Shown: positions 8,343 through 56,626 of the stretch, in pieces
Layout of the letters: the number at the start of each line of letters is the position of its first letter
Numbering within the stretch: the first letter of the stretch is position 1
IMG/VR virus record: IMGVR_UViG_3300014204_000113
Location: 32,001-96,000 of that record
Source: a virus
Taxonomy: Duplodnaviria > Caudoviricetes
Length of the DNA stretch: 64,000 nt
Direction: 5' to 3' (one strand)
Position numbers and translations under genes: made by a program
The notes under the pieces: model-generated
Databases searched by the model: none
What the model was told of the DNA's origin: nothing
The model's input: the letters and a program-made list of their open reading frames with translations, nothing else

Positions 8343-8810
8343 ATGGCGTCGATTAAAAAATTAATGAAAATAGACAGAGAGATTTCAAATTGTATTGATG
8401 ATAGAGAAATCAATTTTATTGAAGCAGAGAATATAATCTCTACAATTTGTGAGAAACTTAATTTACCAAAGATGACAATTAAATTTTGTTTTTATGAAAA
8501 GAAAGCTGATTGGTTTTTGAGAAAATTATGCAGATTTTTCAACAAAGAAAAACTTTGTGATTTGTATGAAGAAAAAATAGGAAAAAGAAGATTAAGAGTT
8601 GGAGAAGCATATCATGAAATAAATTATATAGTATTATATTCTTCTGGTCAAAATATTAGTACACTATTGCATGAGATTGCTCACTTATTGCCAAATGGAG
8701 TTAATCATGGGAAGAATTGGATAAAGAATTTTAAAGAAGTAGTGAAAATATATAACAAGGAAATTTCAATATGCGCCTGTCGCCAAGCGGACATGGCAGA
8801 AGACTTCTAA
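8343..8810 (+). CDS. SprT-like zinc metallopeptidase-domain protein
   Basis: LLHEIAH...HGKNW motif. Confidence 0.6.
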   Translation: MASIKKLMKIDREISNCIDDREINFIEAENIISTICEKLNLPKMTIKFCFYEKKADWFLRKLCRFFNKEKLCDLYEEKIGKRRLRVGEAYHEINYIVLYSSGQNISTLLHEIAHLLPNGVNHGKNWIKNFKEVVKIYNKEISICACRQADMAEDF

Positions 8811-31822: not shown

Positions 31823-32202
31823 TGGAAGAATTAATAATCACACAAAAATATCTTCAAGACAATCCAGACCATATCTTTGTTTTTGGGGATAATCTTTTAA
31901 GGAAAGGAAAGGCTGGGGCGGCAAAACTGAGAGACCTTCCTAATTCTTATGGATTCATTACAAAGAAATATCCAAACAATGACATTAAAAGTTTTTACAA
32001 ACCAGAAGAATATAAAACAGTATTTGAAAAAGAATTAGATAAATTGATATTTCAAATTGTGATGCATCAAGACAAGACTTTTCTAATTAGTAAATTAGGC
32101 AGCGGTCTTGCTAATCGTTTTCACATTTGGGAAAAGGTTATCAAATTCGGACTTGTGCATTTAAAACACTATGAAAATGTAAAATTTCTATGGACGGAAT
32201 AA
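31810..32202 (+). CDS. Conserved phage protein (IFVFGDN family, macro-domain-like)
   Basis: IFVFGDN..GKAGAA, GxxTKK, LGSGLA. Confidence 0.55.
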   Translation: MDEIMEELIITQKYLQDNPDHIFVFGDNLLRKGKAGAAKLRDLPNSYGFITKKYPNNDIKSFYKPEEYKTVFEKELDKLIFQIVMHQDKTFLISKLGSGLANRFHIWEKVIKFGLVHLKHYENVKFLWTE

Positions 32203-35919: not shown

Positions 35920-36900
35920 ATGAATAAAACCAACGTTATCAAAGTGTTAGACAGTATTTCACCTATTCTTTCAGAAGATTATGACATTATTCACTTTAAT
36001 CAAGATTCAATTTACGCTGAAAACAACATGATAGGAATTTCTTGCAATCTAGATTTTGGTTTTAAGGCTTCAATTAGAGGGATTGAATTAATAAAACTTC
36101 TTAAAAAGATGTCAGGCGATGAAGTAGAATTTAAACTTACAGATAAAACTTTATCAGTCAAAGGTGGTGGTTTATCAGCCAAGTTTAAGAAATACGACAA
36201 GGAAAAAATGCCGCCAGACTTTACTGAATTGGAATTTAAGGAAATTCCAGATAATTTTATTGAAGCAATAATTGCTTGTTTGCCATCTGTATCAGACAAA
36301 GATATTCAAGGAATTTTAACTGGATTACACATTGATAATGCTTTGATGTATGGTTGTAACAATGTTTCTGTGACTGAATACGAAATACCAGATATGGATG
36401 TAACATTTACTCTTCCAAAACAAACCGCTTCTTTGTTGACCAAATTTAATCCAAAATATTATCATATCACTGATAACAAAGCCATTTTTGCCAATGAAGA
36501 TAAAACTTCATTTCTATGGTCTGTGCTTATGGCTGGTGCTTATCCTGTAGAAAACATGGTAAAGTTATTGTCTAAAGAAGGTGATATTTTTTCTTTGCCA
36601 GAAGAAATAGGCAAAAGGGCAGATATTGTAAGTCTGTTTGCTTATGATGCTCAAGATGGAAGTTCATTTATTGAAGTGGATATACAAGCGGATAAGATTG
36701 TATTGGGCGGTAACAAGTCTTTTGGGAATTTAGAAGATGTAATGGAATATAAATCAGAAGGAAGCGTAAAATTTCATGTGAATTCAAGTGCTTTGGGAAG
36801 GGCATTGACAATAAATAATAAATTTGTTTGCTGTGGAAATTATTTGGTATTTGAGGATGATAAGATTCGACATCTAATTTGTTTGGTTGACCATAGTTGA
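35920..36900 (+). CDS. DNA polymerase III beta-clamp-like protein
   Basis: Size, S......LTG.H, G.YP pattern and context with DnaE and clamp loader. Confidence 0.7.
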   Translation: MNKTNVIKVLDSISPILSEDYDIIHFNQDSIYAENNMIGISCNLDFGFKASIRGIELIKLLKKMSGDEVEFKLTDKTLSVKGGGLSAKFKKYDKEKMPPDFTELEFKEIPDNFIEAIIACLPSVSDKDIQGILTGLHIDNALMYGCNNVSVTEYEIPDMDVTFTLPKQTASLLTKFNPKYYHITDNKAIFANEDKTSFLWSVLMAGAYPVENMVKLLSKEGDIFSLPEEIGKRADIVSLFAYDAQDGSSFIEVDIQADKIVLGGNKSFGNLEDVMEYKSEGSVKFHVNSSALGRALTINNKFVCCGNYLVFEDDKIRHLICLVDHS

Positions 36901-36926
36901 TAATATGGGAATATTTGATAAAATAT

Positions 36927-36994
36927 GGTGAGGTAAGGTAAGGTTTGGTACGGTTAGGTTGGGTGGGGTAAGGTAGGGTGTGGTATGGTAAGGG
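36927..36994 (+). repeat. GGT-NN pentamer array A (13 units), candidate guide RNA
   Basis: NN = GA AA AA TT AC TA TG GG AA AG GT AT AA; invariant GGT. Confidence 0.9.
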
Positions 36995-37020
36995 TGCAAG
37001 TCTAAAGAATTAGACTTGCA
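36995..37020 (+). terminator. Perfect 11-bp hairpin immediately 3' of array A
   Basis: TGCAAGTCTAA-AGAA-TTAGACTTGCA. Confidence 0.6.
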
Positions 37021-37054
37021 CAGTTTCAAAGAATTAAAAAAGGAGAAATAAACA

Positions 37055-49373: not shown

Positions 49374-49402
49374 TTGACAAATTTTGGGAAAAATTCTACA
49401 AT
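49374..49402 (+). promoter_or_regulatory. Promoter upstream of recA and downstream array cassette
   Basis: TTGACA-17-TACAAT. Confidence 0.65.
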
Positions 49403-49494
49403 AAAGGTAGTCAAAATTTCCATTTCCCATCCTCCTAAACCCCTAACCCTGTCCCATCTGAAAATGGTGGGGCAGGAACTTTATGGAGTTTATA

Positions 49495-50586
49495 ATGCCA
49501 CCAAGAAAGAAAACAGATGATGTTGTAAATCAAATCAAAGAAGTTGCAAATAGTCCTGTGAGAAAAGATGATGAACGAGTTGAGTTTTTGAACAGTGGTT
49601 CAACTTTATTAAATTTAGCTGCTTCACAAAAAGGTAAAGATGGTGGATGGGCGCGAGGGAGAGTAATTAATTTGGTTGGTGATTCTAGTTCTGGGAAAAG
49701 CGCCCTTGCATTAGAAGTTTGTGCTCAAAGTCTTTACAATATTAAAAATATAGAATCTAAAATATATCCAAAACCTCAAAAGGTTTCAATAGTTTACAAC
49801 AATGTTGAAGGCGTAATGGATTTTCCAATTTCACAAATGTTCGGTGAGAAATTTAATAATGAAATCGAATGGATACAAACACCAACTTGTGAAGGTTTTG
49901 GTAAAGATTATCAACAAAGAGTCCGTAATTTAAAATCTGGAGAATTTCTTTTATATATTTTAGATTCAATTGATGCTTTAACAACAGAAGCTTCTTCAGA
50001 AAGAATGGATCAACTTTTAACCGATAAAAAAGTTGGTGGTTCTTATGGTTTAGAAAAACCAAAATTTTTTTCAAGTGAATTTTTCAATCATTTATGTGGA
50101 ATAATGAAAGGAAAAGATTCAACACTAGTTTGTATCAGTCAAGTTAGACAAAATATTGGCATAATGTTTGGGGAAAAACTTACAAGAACTGGTGGGAAAG
50201 CTCTAGATTTTTATGCACATCAAGTTTGTTGGTTGGCAACCATTGAAAAAATGAAGAAAACTTTTCGTAATCAAGATAGAATTTATGGAGTAAAAATAAG
50301 AGCACGTTTTAAAAAAAATAAAACAGCAATACCTTATAGAGAATGTGATTTTAGTATTATTTTCAATTTTGGAATTGATGATGTCAATTCAATGTTAGAT
50401 TTTTGTTTTGGTCCAAAAAGCAAGGAAATGACTTGGAATGACCAAGAAATGAAACGAGGAGATTTAGTAGAATTAATTGACAACTCAAAGGAGGATTATT
50501 TACTGCTACAAGAACTGACTGAAAAAATTTGGCATGAAATAGAGGAGGGAATAAAACCACGAAGAAAAAACAGGTTTATTGATTGA
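49495..50586 (+). CDS. recA: RecA/UvsX-like recombinase
   Basis: GDSSSGKS, LDSIDAL, ISQVRQNIG, TGGKALDFYA, KNK. Confidence 0.9.
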   Translation: MPPRKKTDDVVNQIKEVANSPVRKDDERVEFLNSGSTLLNLAASQKGKDGGWARGRVINLVGDSSSGKSALALEVCAQSLYNIKNIESKIYPKPQKVSIVYNNVEGVMDFPISQMFGEKFNNEIEWIQTPTCEGFGKDYQQRVRNLKSGEFLLYILDSIDALTTEASSERMDQLLTDKKVGGSYGLEKPKFFSSEFFNHLCGIMKGKDSTLVCISQVRQNIGIMFGEKLTRTGGKALDFYAHQVCWLATIEKMKKTFRNQDRIYGVKIRARFKKNKTAIPYRECDFSIIFNFGIDDVNSMLDFCFGPKSKEMTWNDQEMKRGDLVELIDNSKEDYLLLQELTEKIWHEIEEGIKPRRKNRFID

Positions 50587-50709
50587 GGTTAGGTTTGGTT
50601 AGGTGGGGTCCGGTAAGGTGAGGTAAGGTGAGGTGTGATGAGGTTGGGTAAGGTGGGGTGAGGTAAGGTATGGTAAGGTACGGTATGGTAGGCTAGGGTG
50701 AGGTATGGA
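50587..50709 (+). repeat. GGT-NN pentamer array B (24 units), candidate guide RNA
   Basis: Starts at the base after recA TGA; NN = TA TT TA GG CC AA GA AA GA GT GA TG AA GG GA AA AT AA AC AT AG AG GA AT. Confidence 0.92.
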
Positions 50710-50711
50710 TT

Positions 50712-51026
50712 TTGCGACTTAAATTTGAAAGTTGTTTTGAAACTCAATTTCGGGAAGAACTTGAAAGTCGTGGATTCATAAAGAATAAAGATTTCATACA
50801 AGAATTTCCAGTTCGGTATCCAACCCGAATAATCGACTTTGTATTTTATGACAAAAAGGTTGGTGTTGAATTGGATGGTCCACATCACATTGGTAAGAAA
50901 AAGTATGTTGACAAGTGGAAAGATGAAAAAGCAATAAAACAAGGATGGGTTATTGTAAGATTTGATTTGGAGCAAATGAAAGATATCAAGAATTGTGTTG
51001 ATATGGCTTTAAGTTTGATTAAATGA
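50712..51026 (+). CDS. DUF559/Vsr-like endonuclease
   Basis: QEFPV..IIDF..VELDGPHH..D..KD..GW.IVRF. Confidence 0.8.
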   Translation: MRLKFESCFETQFREELESRGFIKNKDFIQEFPVRYPTRIIDFVFYDKKVGVELDGPHHIGKKKYVDKWKDEKAIKQGWVIVRFDLEQMKDIKNCVDMALSLIK

Positions 51027-51033
51027 ATTTTAT

Positions 51034-51096
51034 GGTGCGGTTGGGTCTGGTGTGGTACGGTTTGGTCAGGTATGGTCAGGTAGGGTAAGGTATGGG
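51034..51096 (+). repeat. GGT-NN pentamer array C (12 units)
   Basis: NN = GC TG CT GT AC TT CA AT CA AG AA AT; ends GGGTTTTT. Confidence 0.9.
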
Positions 51097-51122: not shown

Positions 51123-51653
51123 ATGGAGAAACAAATCATGGAGTTGACAAGAATTAAAGTAACAGTTCATGGAACAAAACCTCTTTTGGTGCATCGTTTT
51201 GCGGAAGAAGAAAGCGGCAAATCCAGGAAGAAAGCAACTGAGGATTCAAAAACGCAGGCAGAAAAGGCTCTTTACACAAATGCAGATGGACCTTATGCAC
51301 CATCTTCTTGGTTTGAAGGAGCTATGGTTAAAGCCGGTGTAAATTTCTCGTTGCGCGGCAAGAAAACTTACAAAGATTTGGTTAAAAGTGCGGTTGTGGT
51401 GACACCAGAAGAAATTCCTCTACGCAACGAATGGGAAGTAGATTCTCGTCCTGTTGTGATTAGCGGCAGGATTATGCGCCATCGTCCTAAATTTAAAGAA
51501 TGGTCGGCAGAATTCACAGTTGAAATTACAGACCCGCAATTACCAGCAAATGTCTTGCAAGACATTTTGAAAGATGCAGGACAATATTGTGGCGTGGGTG
51601 ACTACAGACCCAAGTTTGGTACTTTTGAAATTGTTGAATTTAAAGAAATTTAA
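51123..51653 (+). CDS. Small RAMP/Cas7-like protein 1 associated with GGT-NN arrays
   Basis: IKVTVHGTKPLLVH (beta1), PSSWFEGAM, R.RP, C-terminal glycine loop GVGDYRPKFGTF; paralogue of 55107-55661. Confidence 0.7.
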   Translation: MEKQIMELTRIKVTVHGTKPLLVHRFAEEESGKSRKKATEDSKTQAEKALYTNADGPYAPSSWFEGAMVKAGVNFSLRGKKTYKDLVKSAVVVTPEEIPLRNEWEVDSRPVVISGRIMRHRPKFKEWSAEFTVEITDPQLPANVLQDILKDAGQYCGVGDYRPKFGTFEIVEFKEI

Positions 51654-51660
51654 TTGATAA

Positions 51661-51702
51661 TTTATGTAGCAATAAAATTTAATTATTCTATTGCTACATA
51701 AA
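51661..51702. terminator. Inverted repeat after RAMP-like gene 1
   Basis: TTTATGTAGCAATA...TATTGCTACATAAA. Confidence 0.6.
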
Positions 51703-51720
51703 AACAAGGTGGGCAGATTA

Positions 51721-51987
51721 ATGTACAAAATATACAAATACCCGTTTGAAATCAAAGATGAATTCATCATTGAGATGCCTTATGATTCAAAGATTCTCAA
51801 CGCCTTTTGCCAAAATGATATTCCTTGTATGTGGGCATTAGTTAATCCACAAAGAAAATTACAAAAACGTAAATTCACCATTATAGGTACAGGGCATCCA
51901 ATTGAAGAAACTTACAATTTAGAACATATTTCAACTTTTTCACAATCTGATGGCAAATTCATCTGGCACCTTTTTGAGATAGTCTAA
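51721..51987 (+). CDS. Conserved hypothetical phage protein
   Basis: IYKY, WALV, GTGH, FIWHLFE. Confidence 0.65.
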   Translation: MYKIYKYPFEIKDEFIIEMPYDSKILNAFCQNDIPCMWALVNPQRKLQKRKFTIIGTGHPIEETYNLEHISTFSQSDGKFIWHLFEIV

Positions 51988-54503: not shown

Positions 54504-54758
54504 ATGAAAACCCTATTCCTGATTTTGCTTCTATGTCTGCTTGCAAGTCCCGCATGGCCCAGAGACCACAACAATTATGTAATCAGAGACAAGAATTATA
54601 CTGTCAAAAATTATGTCAAAGATGGAAAAATTTATGATAAGAATTACCGTCTTGAAGGTTACATAAGTCCTAATGGCACTATCAGAGATAGAAATTATAA
54701 AACTGAAGGTTATCTTGACAGGAATAGAAGTGGCGGTCGCAAAGGGCGAAACAAATGA
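54504..54758 (+). CDS. Small secreted protein with three I.DKNY...GY repeats
   Basis: Signal peptide; IRDKNYTVKNYV / IYDKNYRLEGYI / IRDRNYKTEGYL. Confidence 0.7.
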   Translation: MKTLFLILLLCLLASPAWPRDHNNYVIRDKNYTVKNYVKDGKIYDKNYRLEGYISPNGTIRDRNYKTEGYLDRNRSGGRKGRNK

Positions 54759-54983: not shown

Positions 54984-55061
54984 AGCATGGTTAGGCGAGT
55001 CCGGGCGATGCTAGGTAGGGCATGGCCAGGCGGGTCTAGGTGTGGCAGGTTGTGGCGAGGA
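54984..55061 (+). repeat. GGY-NN pentamer array D (15 units)
   Basis: NN = AT TA GA CG GA TA AG AT CA GG TA GT AG GT GA; ends GGATTT. Confidence 0.88.
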
Positions 55062-55106: not shown

Positions 55107-55661
55107 ATGAACTTGGTACTGTGTAAATACAAAATTACTGGCTTATTTCCACTTTTAACCCACAGTCCTGCTGGAATGAGGCAAGCGGCCAATGCGCCAA
55201 AAGTCAAGAAGATTCCATCGCCAGAAGATGAAGCACAAGCTGGTTTGTATATTGATAATGATGGAAATTATTGCATCCCGTCTATTGCTTTTCGTTCAGC
55301 TTTATTGAATGGATTGAAAGGGAAAAAGATTGGCAAGGTGGGTGCAATTTCAGTGTTTCAAGCTGCGGTTTTTAACGTGGACGAATTGAGTCCATTAGTT
55401 GACCCTGAAACTGGGCGAGCATTAAGGGAATATACGATCGACACTCGTAGAGCTATCGTGCAAAGACAAGGAATTTTAAGAAACCGTCCAAGATTTGAAA
55501 AATGGGGATGTAATGTTTTTCTTCAAATCGACTTGGAAATAACCACACCTGAGCAAGTAGAAGAAGCATTGAATACGGCTGGTCAAATCATTGGCGTGGG
55601 TGATTTCCGTATTGAAAAGAGAGGAATGTTCGGTAAGTTTCAAGCCGAATTGGTTGAATAA
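55107..55661 (+). CDS. Small RAMP/Cas7-like protein 2 associated with GGC-NN arrays
   Basis: KITGLFPLLTH, IPSIAFRSAL, RNRPRF, glycine loop GVGDFRIEKRGMFGKF. Confidence 0.7.
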   Translation: MNLVLCKYKITGLFPLLTHSPAGMRQAANAPKVKKIPSPEDEAQAGLYIDNDGNYCIPSIAFRSALLNGLKGKKIGKVGAISVFQAAVFNVDELSPLVDPETGRALREYTIDTRRAIVQRQGILRNRPRFEKWGCNVFLQIDLEITTPEQVEEALNTAGQIIGVGDFRIEKRGMFGKFQAELVE

Positions 55662-55679
55662 AAGATTTTAAAGATTTGT

Positions 55680-55749
55680 GGCAAGGCGAGGCTGGGCTAG
55701 GCGGGGCTAGGCGGGGCTAGGCGGGGCTAGGTATGTCAAGGCGAGGTTT
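55680..55749 (+). repeat. GGC-NN pentamer array E (13-14 units)
   Basis: NN = AA GA TG TA GG TA GG TA GG TA AT AA GA; internal (GGCTAGGCGG)x3. Confidence 0.88.
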
Positions 55750-55789
55750 GAAAAAGAAATTAAGAACAAGAAATATAATGATTTTTCGC

Positions 55790-55842
55790 GGCGGGGTGGG
55801 GCGATGCCCGGCCCGGCATGGTAAGGCAAGTTAAGGCGAGGG
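55790..55842 (+). repeat. GGY-NN pentamer array F (10 units)
   Basis: NN = GG GG GA CC CC AT AA AA AA GA; ends GGGTTTT. Confidence 0.85.
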
Positions 55843-55870: not shown

Positions 55871-56548
55871 ATGCTAATCAAAGCAGCAGAATTGATTGAG
55901 GATTTCAGTTTATATCCACGTTCCCAAGTGGACACAACACATGTAAGAAATATTGCAGAAGCAATGATGGCAGGAGAAAAATTTCCGTCTATCATCATTG
56001 ATGAACAAAATAGGATTATTGATGGCTTCCATCGGAAAAGAGCTACATTGAGGGTTTTTGGAGATGAGGCTGATATTGAAGTAGAAGTTCGACAATATGT
56101 TAACGATAAAGAAAGATTTCTTGATGCTTTGAGATATAATTCAAGACACGGTAAGGGAATAACTGGAGTTGAACAGACAGGAGCTATTTTGAAGGCTCAA
56201 GGTTTCAAGATTGACCCTAAATTTATCGCTTCTGCTTTGGGAATCAGCCAAGAAAGAGTCAAAGAAATCGTGCAATGTAAAGTCGGGAACATTCGCCAAG
56301 GTACGACTGCTCATGGAGACCCAGTTCCTCTAAAACGCTCTATGCAGCATTTTGCTGGGAAAGAAATGACTGTTGAGCAAGTTAAGGTGAATGATATGGC
56401 TCCCGGCACGCCACAATCTCTTCTTATCAATCAACTTATCGGATTTATTGAAAGCGGTAGTTTACAACTGGAAAATGAAAAGATTGTTAATGGACTCATC
56501 CATTTGAAGGAACTTTTAAATGGATTGGTTTTGGAAAAAGCGGTTTGA
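55871..56548 (+). CDS. ParB/Srx-like domain protein
   Basis: YPR, FP.I.ID, IIDGFHR, N.RHG. Confidence 0.8.
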   Translation: MLIKAAELIEDFSLYPRSQVDTTHVRNIAEAMMAGEKFPSIIIDEQNRIIDGFHRKRATLRVFGDEADIEVEVRQYVNDKERFLDALRYNSRHGKGITGVEQTGAILKAQGFKIDPKFIASALGISQERVKEIVQCKVGNIRQGTTAHGDPVPLKRSMQHFAGKEMTVEQVKVNDMAPGTPQSLLINQLIGFIESGSLQLENEKIVNGLIHLKELLNGLVLEKAV

Positions 56549-56563
56549 AATAATTAAAGATTT

Positions 56564-56626
56564 GGCTCGGCTTGGTTGGGCGCGGCTAGGCTATGCGCGG
56601 CTTTGCGTGGCAGGGCAAGGCGTGGA
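56564..56626 (+). repeat. GGC-NN pentamer array G (12 units)
   Basis: NN = TC TT TG GC TA TA GC TT GT AG AA GT; ends GGATTT. Confidence 0.88.

Follow-up and report, generated by a model that had tools for sequence, protein, structure and literature searches.

A five-base repeat array beside recA in a phage genome is probably a guide RNA gene directed against the recA of related phages

What is the role of a strictly periodic repeat which begins in the very stop codon of a phage recA gene? The question arises in IMG/VR virus record IMGVR_UViG_3300014204_000113 (Duplodnaviria; Caudoviricetes), a virus genome of 187,988 bp which has terminal repeats. We have analysed a 64-kb part of it, positions 32,001 to 96,000, which we call the window; the coordinates of the features listed below count from its first letter. 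The repeat, array B, is formed by 25 five-base units, each with two variable bases followed by a fixed triplet (NN+GGT). The 5-nt register is perfect and two of the 25 units are degenerate: GTGAT, which is unit 11, and AGGCT. The array is non-coding, lies on the transcribed strand straight after recA and its first unit (GA) shares bases with the recA stop codon. The original prediction, made from the letters of the DNA, was that each NN gives the first two bases of a codon and that the array guides something to the recA of a related phage. We find that array B is best explained, taking everything together, as a guide RNA gene of the VIPR type directed against the recA of related phages, a reading to which we give a probability of about 0.85. 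As an object the array belongs to a family known from publications of 2026, and the idea of a gapped guide is a rediscovery. The features needed for the argument are the following:

49483–50586, + strand: recA-like recombinase gene, 367 aa (Pfam RecA, E 1.2e-26); this is the allele of the phage itself, with mismatches to the guide.
50398–50457, + strand: self site of array B, 20 codons (DFCFGPKSKEMTWNDQEMKR) in which the phage's own recA is homologous to the target; 27 of 40 NN bases match.
50585–50709, + strand: array B, 25 NN+GGT units.
50585–50684, + strand: guide part of array B, 20 NN+GGT units whose NN bases specify a 60-bp target under a code which skips one nucleotide.
50685–50709, + strand: 3' end of array B, with units ATGGT, AGGCT, AGGGT, GAGGT and ATGGA.

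Does such a target exist? Neither blastn of the phage collection nor a single-protein RecA scan of IMG/VR gave close relatives; RecA homologues from public metagenomes were found by protein search and then aligned. One of them, the P0004 type, represents a known phage group with a RecA 63% identical to that of our phage; its recA DNA was taken from five independent contigs. All 32 NN bases of units 1–16 are present in this gene, 39 of the 40 in units 1–20 (97.5%) and 41 of the 50 in the complete array. A gapped target in a related phage's recA is thus found as predicted: it is in the recA frame and the skipped base is the wobble position at every unit. The RecA of the P0004 type reads DYFYGPKEKEVEWNGEQIKT at this place. 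By a hand count array B allows 19 of its 20 codons, against 10 of 20 in the phage's own gene, and the peptide which had been decoded from the array as a RecA homologue fits the relatives' RecA far better than self.

The match is far from what shuffled arrays give. In 1000 shuffles of the NN order against the same 21-kb P0004 locus the mean was 23.9 and the maximum 28 of 40. Only the skip of one nucleotide works: with dinucleotides spaced by 0, 2 or 3 bases we find 23, 25 and 23 matches of 40. The database search which had been suggested as a check leads to the same gene. The exact 32-base gapped pattern occurs in two contigs of IMG/VR, both with this P0004-type recA, while a 30-base gapped pattern in the JGI metagenome contigs gave one contig, again with this recA; exact-pattern scans of this kind overlook any target with a mismatch. 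A stricter scan of the metagenome contigs (units 5–20, with AA required at unit 17) gave no match and the P0004 type stays the best target. A second relative is G001, a syntenic 189-kb sibling phage with a RecA of another type (P0005), whose recA matches 33 of the 40 bases.

The original prediction had started from the phage's own recA, and its counts are right: units 2–19 share 25 of 36 bases with positions 50401–50454, including nine identical dinucleotides, in frame (by hand and by script), and this site lies 136–189 bp upstream of the array. Those 18 units do match, but the guide is in fact longer at both ends: it extends over units 1–20 and includes the initial GA. Over these 20 units the phage's own recA matches at 27 of 40 bases (67.5%), the best match of array B in its own genome.

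How much weight can this self match carry? It is the best gapped match in the window; 24% of the NN-order shuffles do as well at some place in the window, and none of 100 does so within 1 kb of the array. Among the ~376,000 positions of the whole 188-kb genome only two reach this score, and the chance of one falling within 600 bp is p ~0.013. Taken alone the self match is suggestive and not decisive, borderline by chance standards. It becomes decisive because the relative's recA matches at 39 of 40 bases in the homologous codons.

The figure of 24% is also what gives some room to a different explanation, that array B is no guide at all. TRAP binding sites resemble triplets recurring every 5 nt, and GGT runs might form two-tetrad G-quadruplexes; in a protein-binding or structural repeat of either kind the likeness to recA would be due to chance. 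We regard this as very improbable, given a 39/40 in-frame match to a relative's recA at homologous codons, a gapped pattern which is specific database-wide, a gene for a Cas7-like protein 400 bp away and the same result for another array of the genome, array A (see below). A TRAP-like array or a G-quadruplex run was dropped as a candidate in view of the VIPR literature and of the P0004 target match.

What kind of guide could array B be? VIPR consists of a small RAMP protein, Vipr, and of vrRNAs with 9–16 GGY+NN repeats (10.64898/2026.04.26.720920). It has been shown experimentally that the NN bases of the vrRNA pair with double-stranded DNA and that one base per unit is skipped; competing phages are targeted mostly in their coding sequences, where the skipped base falls on the wobble position (10.64898/2026.04.26.720920). 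Cryo-EM structures have one Vipr protomer per repeat, which holds the GGY and presents the NN, forming a filament and a triplex (10.64898/2026.04.26.720927). A target is called when at least 80% of the NN bases match, and no self match at that level was reported (10.64898/2026.04.26.720920). By a Vipr protein we understand a minimal RAMP in which an RRM core is combined with a glycine-rich loop and a thumb, and by a vrRNA array at least four tandem YNNGG / GGY+NN units beside vipr. The genes which follow array B are:

50712–51026, + strand: DUF559 gene, 104 aa, nuclease-like (Vsr-like, PD-(D/E)xK-type), from Pfam DUF559 (E 4.5e-8) and its predicted fold.
51032–51096, + strand: array C, 13 NN+GGT units.
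51123–51653, + strand: vipr1, a 176-aa Cas7-like RAMP protein, presumed binder of the GGT arrays, about 400 bp from array B.
51701–51723, + strand: remnant of an ancestral recA 3' end, reading KTRWAD*, downstream of the cassette which these genes form.

Array B (25 units) and array C (13 units) stand on either side of the DUF559 gene, with vipr1 downstream of both. The P0004-type recA lies above the 80% level with a 1-nt skip aligned on the wobble base; the phage's own recA, at 67.5%, lies below it. Vipr1 gave no Pfam match and no PADLOC model in library searches. Its AlphaFold2 model (pLDDT, the predicted local confidence score, 90.8) was compared with the PDB by Foldseek: it resembles type VII Cas7, Csm3 (III-A) and Cmr4 (III-B), with E ~1e-5, probability 1.0 and TM scores of 0.57–0.60. 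The protein has 84 sequence relatives, and a G-loop near the C-terminus, GVGDYRPKFG, is near-invariant across 35 homologues. With phmmer Vipr1 is related to 188-aa proteins of Pseudomonas (E ~6e-13), which carry H17 and D175; the counterparts in Vipr1 are H24 and D160. In the Vipr of Pseudomonas fulva H17 and D175 contact the first guanine (10.64898/2026.04.26.720927); the likeness to this protein was judged from the published residue names. The 39/40 target, together with a Cas7-like protein which has the conserved residues, makes array B a vrRNA and the gene at 51123–51653 its presumed Vipr.

Several points weigh against this reading. The last five units of array B match nothing in the target; they are probably a 3' handle, and the motif RNGGT-ATGG at the 3' end is common to the GGT arrays. 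A conserved pseudoknot tail of the kind found in the SUSP1 clade was not identified for array B. A hairpin follows some GGT arrays (A and those at 84444 and 96188); none is obvious after array B. The 20 matching units exceed the 9–16 repeats reported for vrRNAs; the array may consist of two guides which abut each other. That the self allele is immune at 67.5% is an assumption taken from the 80% cut-off of the literature, and the 82.5% match of the G001 recA is borderline. Both our phage and the P0004-type phage are known from metagenomes only, so that infection of a shared host is assumed. The DUF559 protein, with conserved D42, E53 and D55, is a candidate accessory (vap) protein, a role which is a guess. 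Finally, six of the 12 GGY arrays of the genome have neither an identified target nor a local self match.

Is the phage's own recA protected? The 13 mismatches of the self site plausibly spare it from the guide. The 20-aa target window of its RecA is 47% identical to the relatives, against 62% for the whole protein. This faster divergence is only a weak sign, because the relatives, compared with one another, are likewise less alike in this window than on average (57% against 67%). The recA DNA compared (49525–50586) is only 68% identical to that of the syntenic sibling phage L014, against 80–92% in the flanking genes, and the last 155 bp do not align with L014 at all. The gene may be a hot spot of divergence, either by replacement or by fast evolution. 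A mosaic test of RecA against L037, a phage fragment with a Vipr 74% identical to ours, found one 45-column segment most similar to L037, which is a hint only.

How did the guide come to lie beside recA? Array B, the DUF559 gene, array C and vipr1 make up a 1.1-kb stretch between recA and a DUF7352 gene. In L014 and G001, which lack this cassette, recA abuts the DUF7352 gene; in L014 the recA stop even overlaps its start. The DNA homology to the cassette-less sibling resumes at 51701, with 89% identity, and there we find KTRWAD*, which resembles the recA end KPRWTD* of the sibling, while the working recA ends in KNRFID*. The order recA–array–DUF559–array–vipr recurs in L037, where a recA-end remnant of 19 codons comes after the cassette. 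The DUF559 gene lies between recA and vipr also in another relative, L038. This comparison with relatives shows the cassette to be an insertion at the 3' end of recA. The recA-adjacent array of L037 is also directed to recA, in this case to the antisense strand: it matches 20 of 22 bases in our phage, 20 of 22 in the P0004 type and 17 of 22 in its own gene. For array C no target was found in an exact IMG/VR scan (units 2–10), a weak negative which a single mismatch in the target would produce.

Two observations concern recA in L014. A divergent Vipr-like gene of 219 aa is found there on the opposite side of recA from the VIPR module of our phage. Between that gene and recA (L014:8370–9100) lies a 700-bp G-rich non-coding stretch in which GGCAGG recurs about a dozen times, without a 5-nt register; this stretch could be another kind of guide array.

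Is the position beside the targeted gene a peculiarity of array B? The genome has 12 GGY arrays and one array with TGT. Besides array B the window has six, all of them intergenic and on the + strand; A and C have GGT, while D to G have mostly GGC. Together with their neighbours they are:

35920–36900, + strand: sliding-clamp (DNA polymerase processivity factor) gene (phrog_947, E 9e-22).
36925–36994, + strand: array A, 14 units, just downstream of the clamp gene.
54987–55061, + strand: array D, degenerate, of the GGC dialect; genome-wide it finds its best partial match at 54630, in the upstream gene.
55107–55661, + strand: vipr2, a paralogue of vipr1 with 30% identity, associated with the GGC arrays.
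55678–55842, + strand: arrays E and F, GGC dialect.
55871–56548, + strand: ParB-like gene (phrog_1033, E 1.7e-12).
56562–56626, + strand: array G, GGC dialect.

The clamp locus repeats what we have seen at recA. Units 1–10 of array A match the clamp gene of G001 at 20 of 20 bases (IDNKFTYCGN); in the phage's own clamp gene they match at 16 of 20 (INNKFVCCGN, 36811–36840), about 90 bp upstream of the array. The reverse is also true: the array of G001 at the same locus matches the clamp gene of our phage at 22 of 24 bases, in its last 12 codons (36862–36897). The two arrays have conserved flanks, a conserved GGT scaffold and a conserved tail hairpin, and nearly every NN is different. For array B itself the search gave no orthologous copy with which to make such a comparison. 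The hairpin (36993–37022; G001:136915–136950) has a compensatory change from C-G to T-A, a substitution pattern which suggests a structured 3' tail or terminator of this class of vrRNA. In a third case the array of G001 at its position 1114 matches our genome at 26 of 26 bases (85931 in window numbering), and the copy in G001 itself, 260 bp away from the array, matches poorly.

In general, five of the 12 arrays in our phage (binomial p ~1e-8) and six of the 10 in G001 (p ~2e-11) have their best genome-wide gapped match no more than 600 bp away, although two arrays are common to both genomes and the two counts are not fully independent. No further than a few hundred bases from their arrays, the target sites tend to be grouped in two places, the 3' end of the gene upstream or the 5' end of the one downstream. 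Searches for targets of the remaining arrays gave less: exact IMG/VR scans with array G and those at 84342 and 96188 found no target, which are weak negatives as one mismatch hides a target, and the array at 80662 has no match in four relatives with three mismatches allowed.

One more array shows a different behaviour. Positions 84444–84523 and 84740–84786 (- strand; window numbering) hold this array and, 260 bp downstream, a site of its own genome which it matches at 18 of 20 bases in the first 10 units and 24 of 32 overall. The array and its site are present as a pair in the sibling phage too. Being over the 80% cut-off, it may be an exception, a self-targeting or regulatory case on the basis of this match.

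These self matches raise the question whether the arrays act in cis, tuning their own neighbouring genes (recA, the clamp gene and others) by partial complementarity, with competitor targeting secondary or absent. The adjacent gene is indeed the best self match for many arrays, and array 84444 reaches 18 of 20 at its own site. Yet wherever relatives are known the non-self match is better: 39/40 against 27/40 for array B, 20/20 against 16/20 for array A, and 26/26 against a weak self match for the G001 array at 1114. Published VIPR guides also lack self matches of 80% or more (10.64898/2026.04.26.720920). We consider regulation in cis a poor candidate for the main role of the arrays.

The adjacency may instead mark a mechanism which writes new guides from the neighbouring gene. 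Codon positions 1 and 2 of that gene would be copied into the NN bases, either from the phage's own ancestral allele or from that of a co-infecting relative acquired by recombination, and the position of the guide would then reflect its birth and not selection for linkage. Stretches of 10–20 consecutive codons are matched perfectly, for which point mutation alone is an unlikely source; the clamp-locus arrays differ at nearly every NN in spite of their common flanks, scaffold and hairpin, and the target sites are clustered near the arrays. What makes this explanation unlikely is that a copy of the phage's own gene would target it at birth, that the cassette showed no gene for a reverse transcriptase, an integrase or a Cas1-like protein (Pfam, PADLOC and PHROG annotation) and that no such mechanism is found in the VIPR preprints (10.64898/2026.04.26.720920, 10.64898/2026.04.26.720927, 10.64898/2026.10.15.759431).

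How would a guide against a rival's recA work? By analogy with the published family, copies of Vipr1 would line up along the array B RNA, each gripping one GGT and presenting two variable bases. The 20 presented dinucleotides would pair with one DNA strand, skipping each third base, and the Vipr filament would repress transcription of the target. When two phages infect the same cell, recA of the rival would be bound by the complex and its expression blocked; the DUF559 nuclease, if recruited, might also cut it. With the guide beside an allele which it mismatches, recombination between related phages could not part weapon from immunity. Guide and immune allele would be kept adjacent because their separation by recombination between siblings would yield self-targeting genomes.

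The adjacency and the opposing guides at the clamp locus suggest that the guide is linked to the immune allele, as in homing. One may go further and think of the vrRNAs and the recA cassette as RNA-guided allele-drive or homing elements: the rival allele would be silenced or cut, and the immune allele would be copied with its guide by recombinational repair. We put this forward tentatively, as a possibility less likely than its absence. T4-like phages have free-standing homing endonucleases (the seg and mob genes, responsible for marker exclusion). The recA cassette resembles them in several features: a small nuclease-like gene is inserted between conserved genes, there are duplicated gene-end remnants, the site is in the neighbouring gene of relatives which lack the insert and the carrier's own allele has diverged there. 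It differs in that recognition would be due to an RNA guide on a Cas7-like filament and not to the nuclease. By this analogy the rival allele might be cleaved and the cassette copied into it.

A more distant relationship is found with the backbone of class 1 CRISPR-Cas systems (Cas7, Csm3, Cmr4). They have in common the fold, one protomer per guide repeat and guide bases which are periodically unpaired. A CRISPR array, Cas1/Cas2 and a large subunit are absent here, the system is phage-borne and the period is 5 nt, with three bases sequestered and two pairing, instead of 6 nt with one base flipped.

With respect to VIPR itself, the type II systems are those of the Escherichia phage SUSP1 and of a Pseudomonas fulva prophage (10.64898/2026.04.26.720920, 10.64898/2026.04.26.720927, 10.64898/2026.10.15.759431). 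Our phage shares with VIPR the small Cas7-like RAMP protein with its G-loop ending in GVGDYRPKFG, the GGY+NN pentamers, one base skipped per unit at the wobble position, competing viral targets, self matches under 80% and a two-gene layout with a small accessory gene. There are also differences. VIPR was described only in 2026 and its natural targets have so far been satellites, prophage regulators and other VIPR loci, while here they are the recA and sliding-clamp genes of sibling phages of lytic type. The guides are spread through a genome of 188 kb, and next to each lies the phage's own version of the gene which it targets. Array B matches over 20 units instead of 9–16; in place of the SUSP1 pseudoknot the GGT arrays end in a short RNGGT-ATGG motif, in some cases followed by a hairpin; there are three Vipr paralogues, each with its own fixed triplet, and the neighbour is a DUF559 nuclease-like protein, unmentioned in the VIPR preprints.

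Compared with those preprints, what is apparently new is the use of core genes of siblings as targets, the dispersal of guides beside the self allele, the opposing guides at one locus, the DUF559 partner and a guide of 20 units. The guide at this locus points to an essential gene of recombination in a sibling phage, and its real target sequence has been found in environmental data. Nor do the preprints mention the regularity that guides are scattered in a large phage genome, each close to the phage's own mismatching copy of its target gene, or that two sibling phages have opposing guides at the same clamp locus. This gives a handle on how such phages escape self-targeting when they recombine with relatives, and on the origin of new guides.

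The paralogues deserve some comment. Vipr1 and Vipr2 both match phrog_4652. A third paralogue of 188 aa, 37% identical to vipr1, is found at 126575–127141 of the genome. It is preceded by the array with fixed triplet TGT (ATTGT GTTGT AATGT TCTGT ...); array and gene together span 126410–127141 of the genome, about 94410–95141 in window numbering. Three paralogues with triplets GGT, GGC and TGT suggest naturally orthogonal guide channels. Close to vipr2, the ParB-like protein is a candidate DNA-binding accessory of this second system, as its annotation and position indicate.

Some minor features complete the surroundings of array B. The TTG start of the DUF559 gene follows the last full unit of the array, GAGGT, at a distance of 8 nt (50700–50714), a spacing at which this unit could also serve as the ribosome-binding site of the gene. 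Upstream of recA there is a candidate promoter:

49374–49402, + strand: candidate sigma-70-like promoter, TTGACA, a 17-nt spacer and TACAAT, with 11 of 12 consensus bases.

By its consensus match this promoter may drive a transcript which runs into array B. An Rfam scan of the window detected tRNAs only: five tRNA genes are scattered in it, at positions 8773, 28334, 46356, 57569 and 57664.

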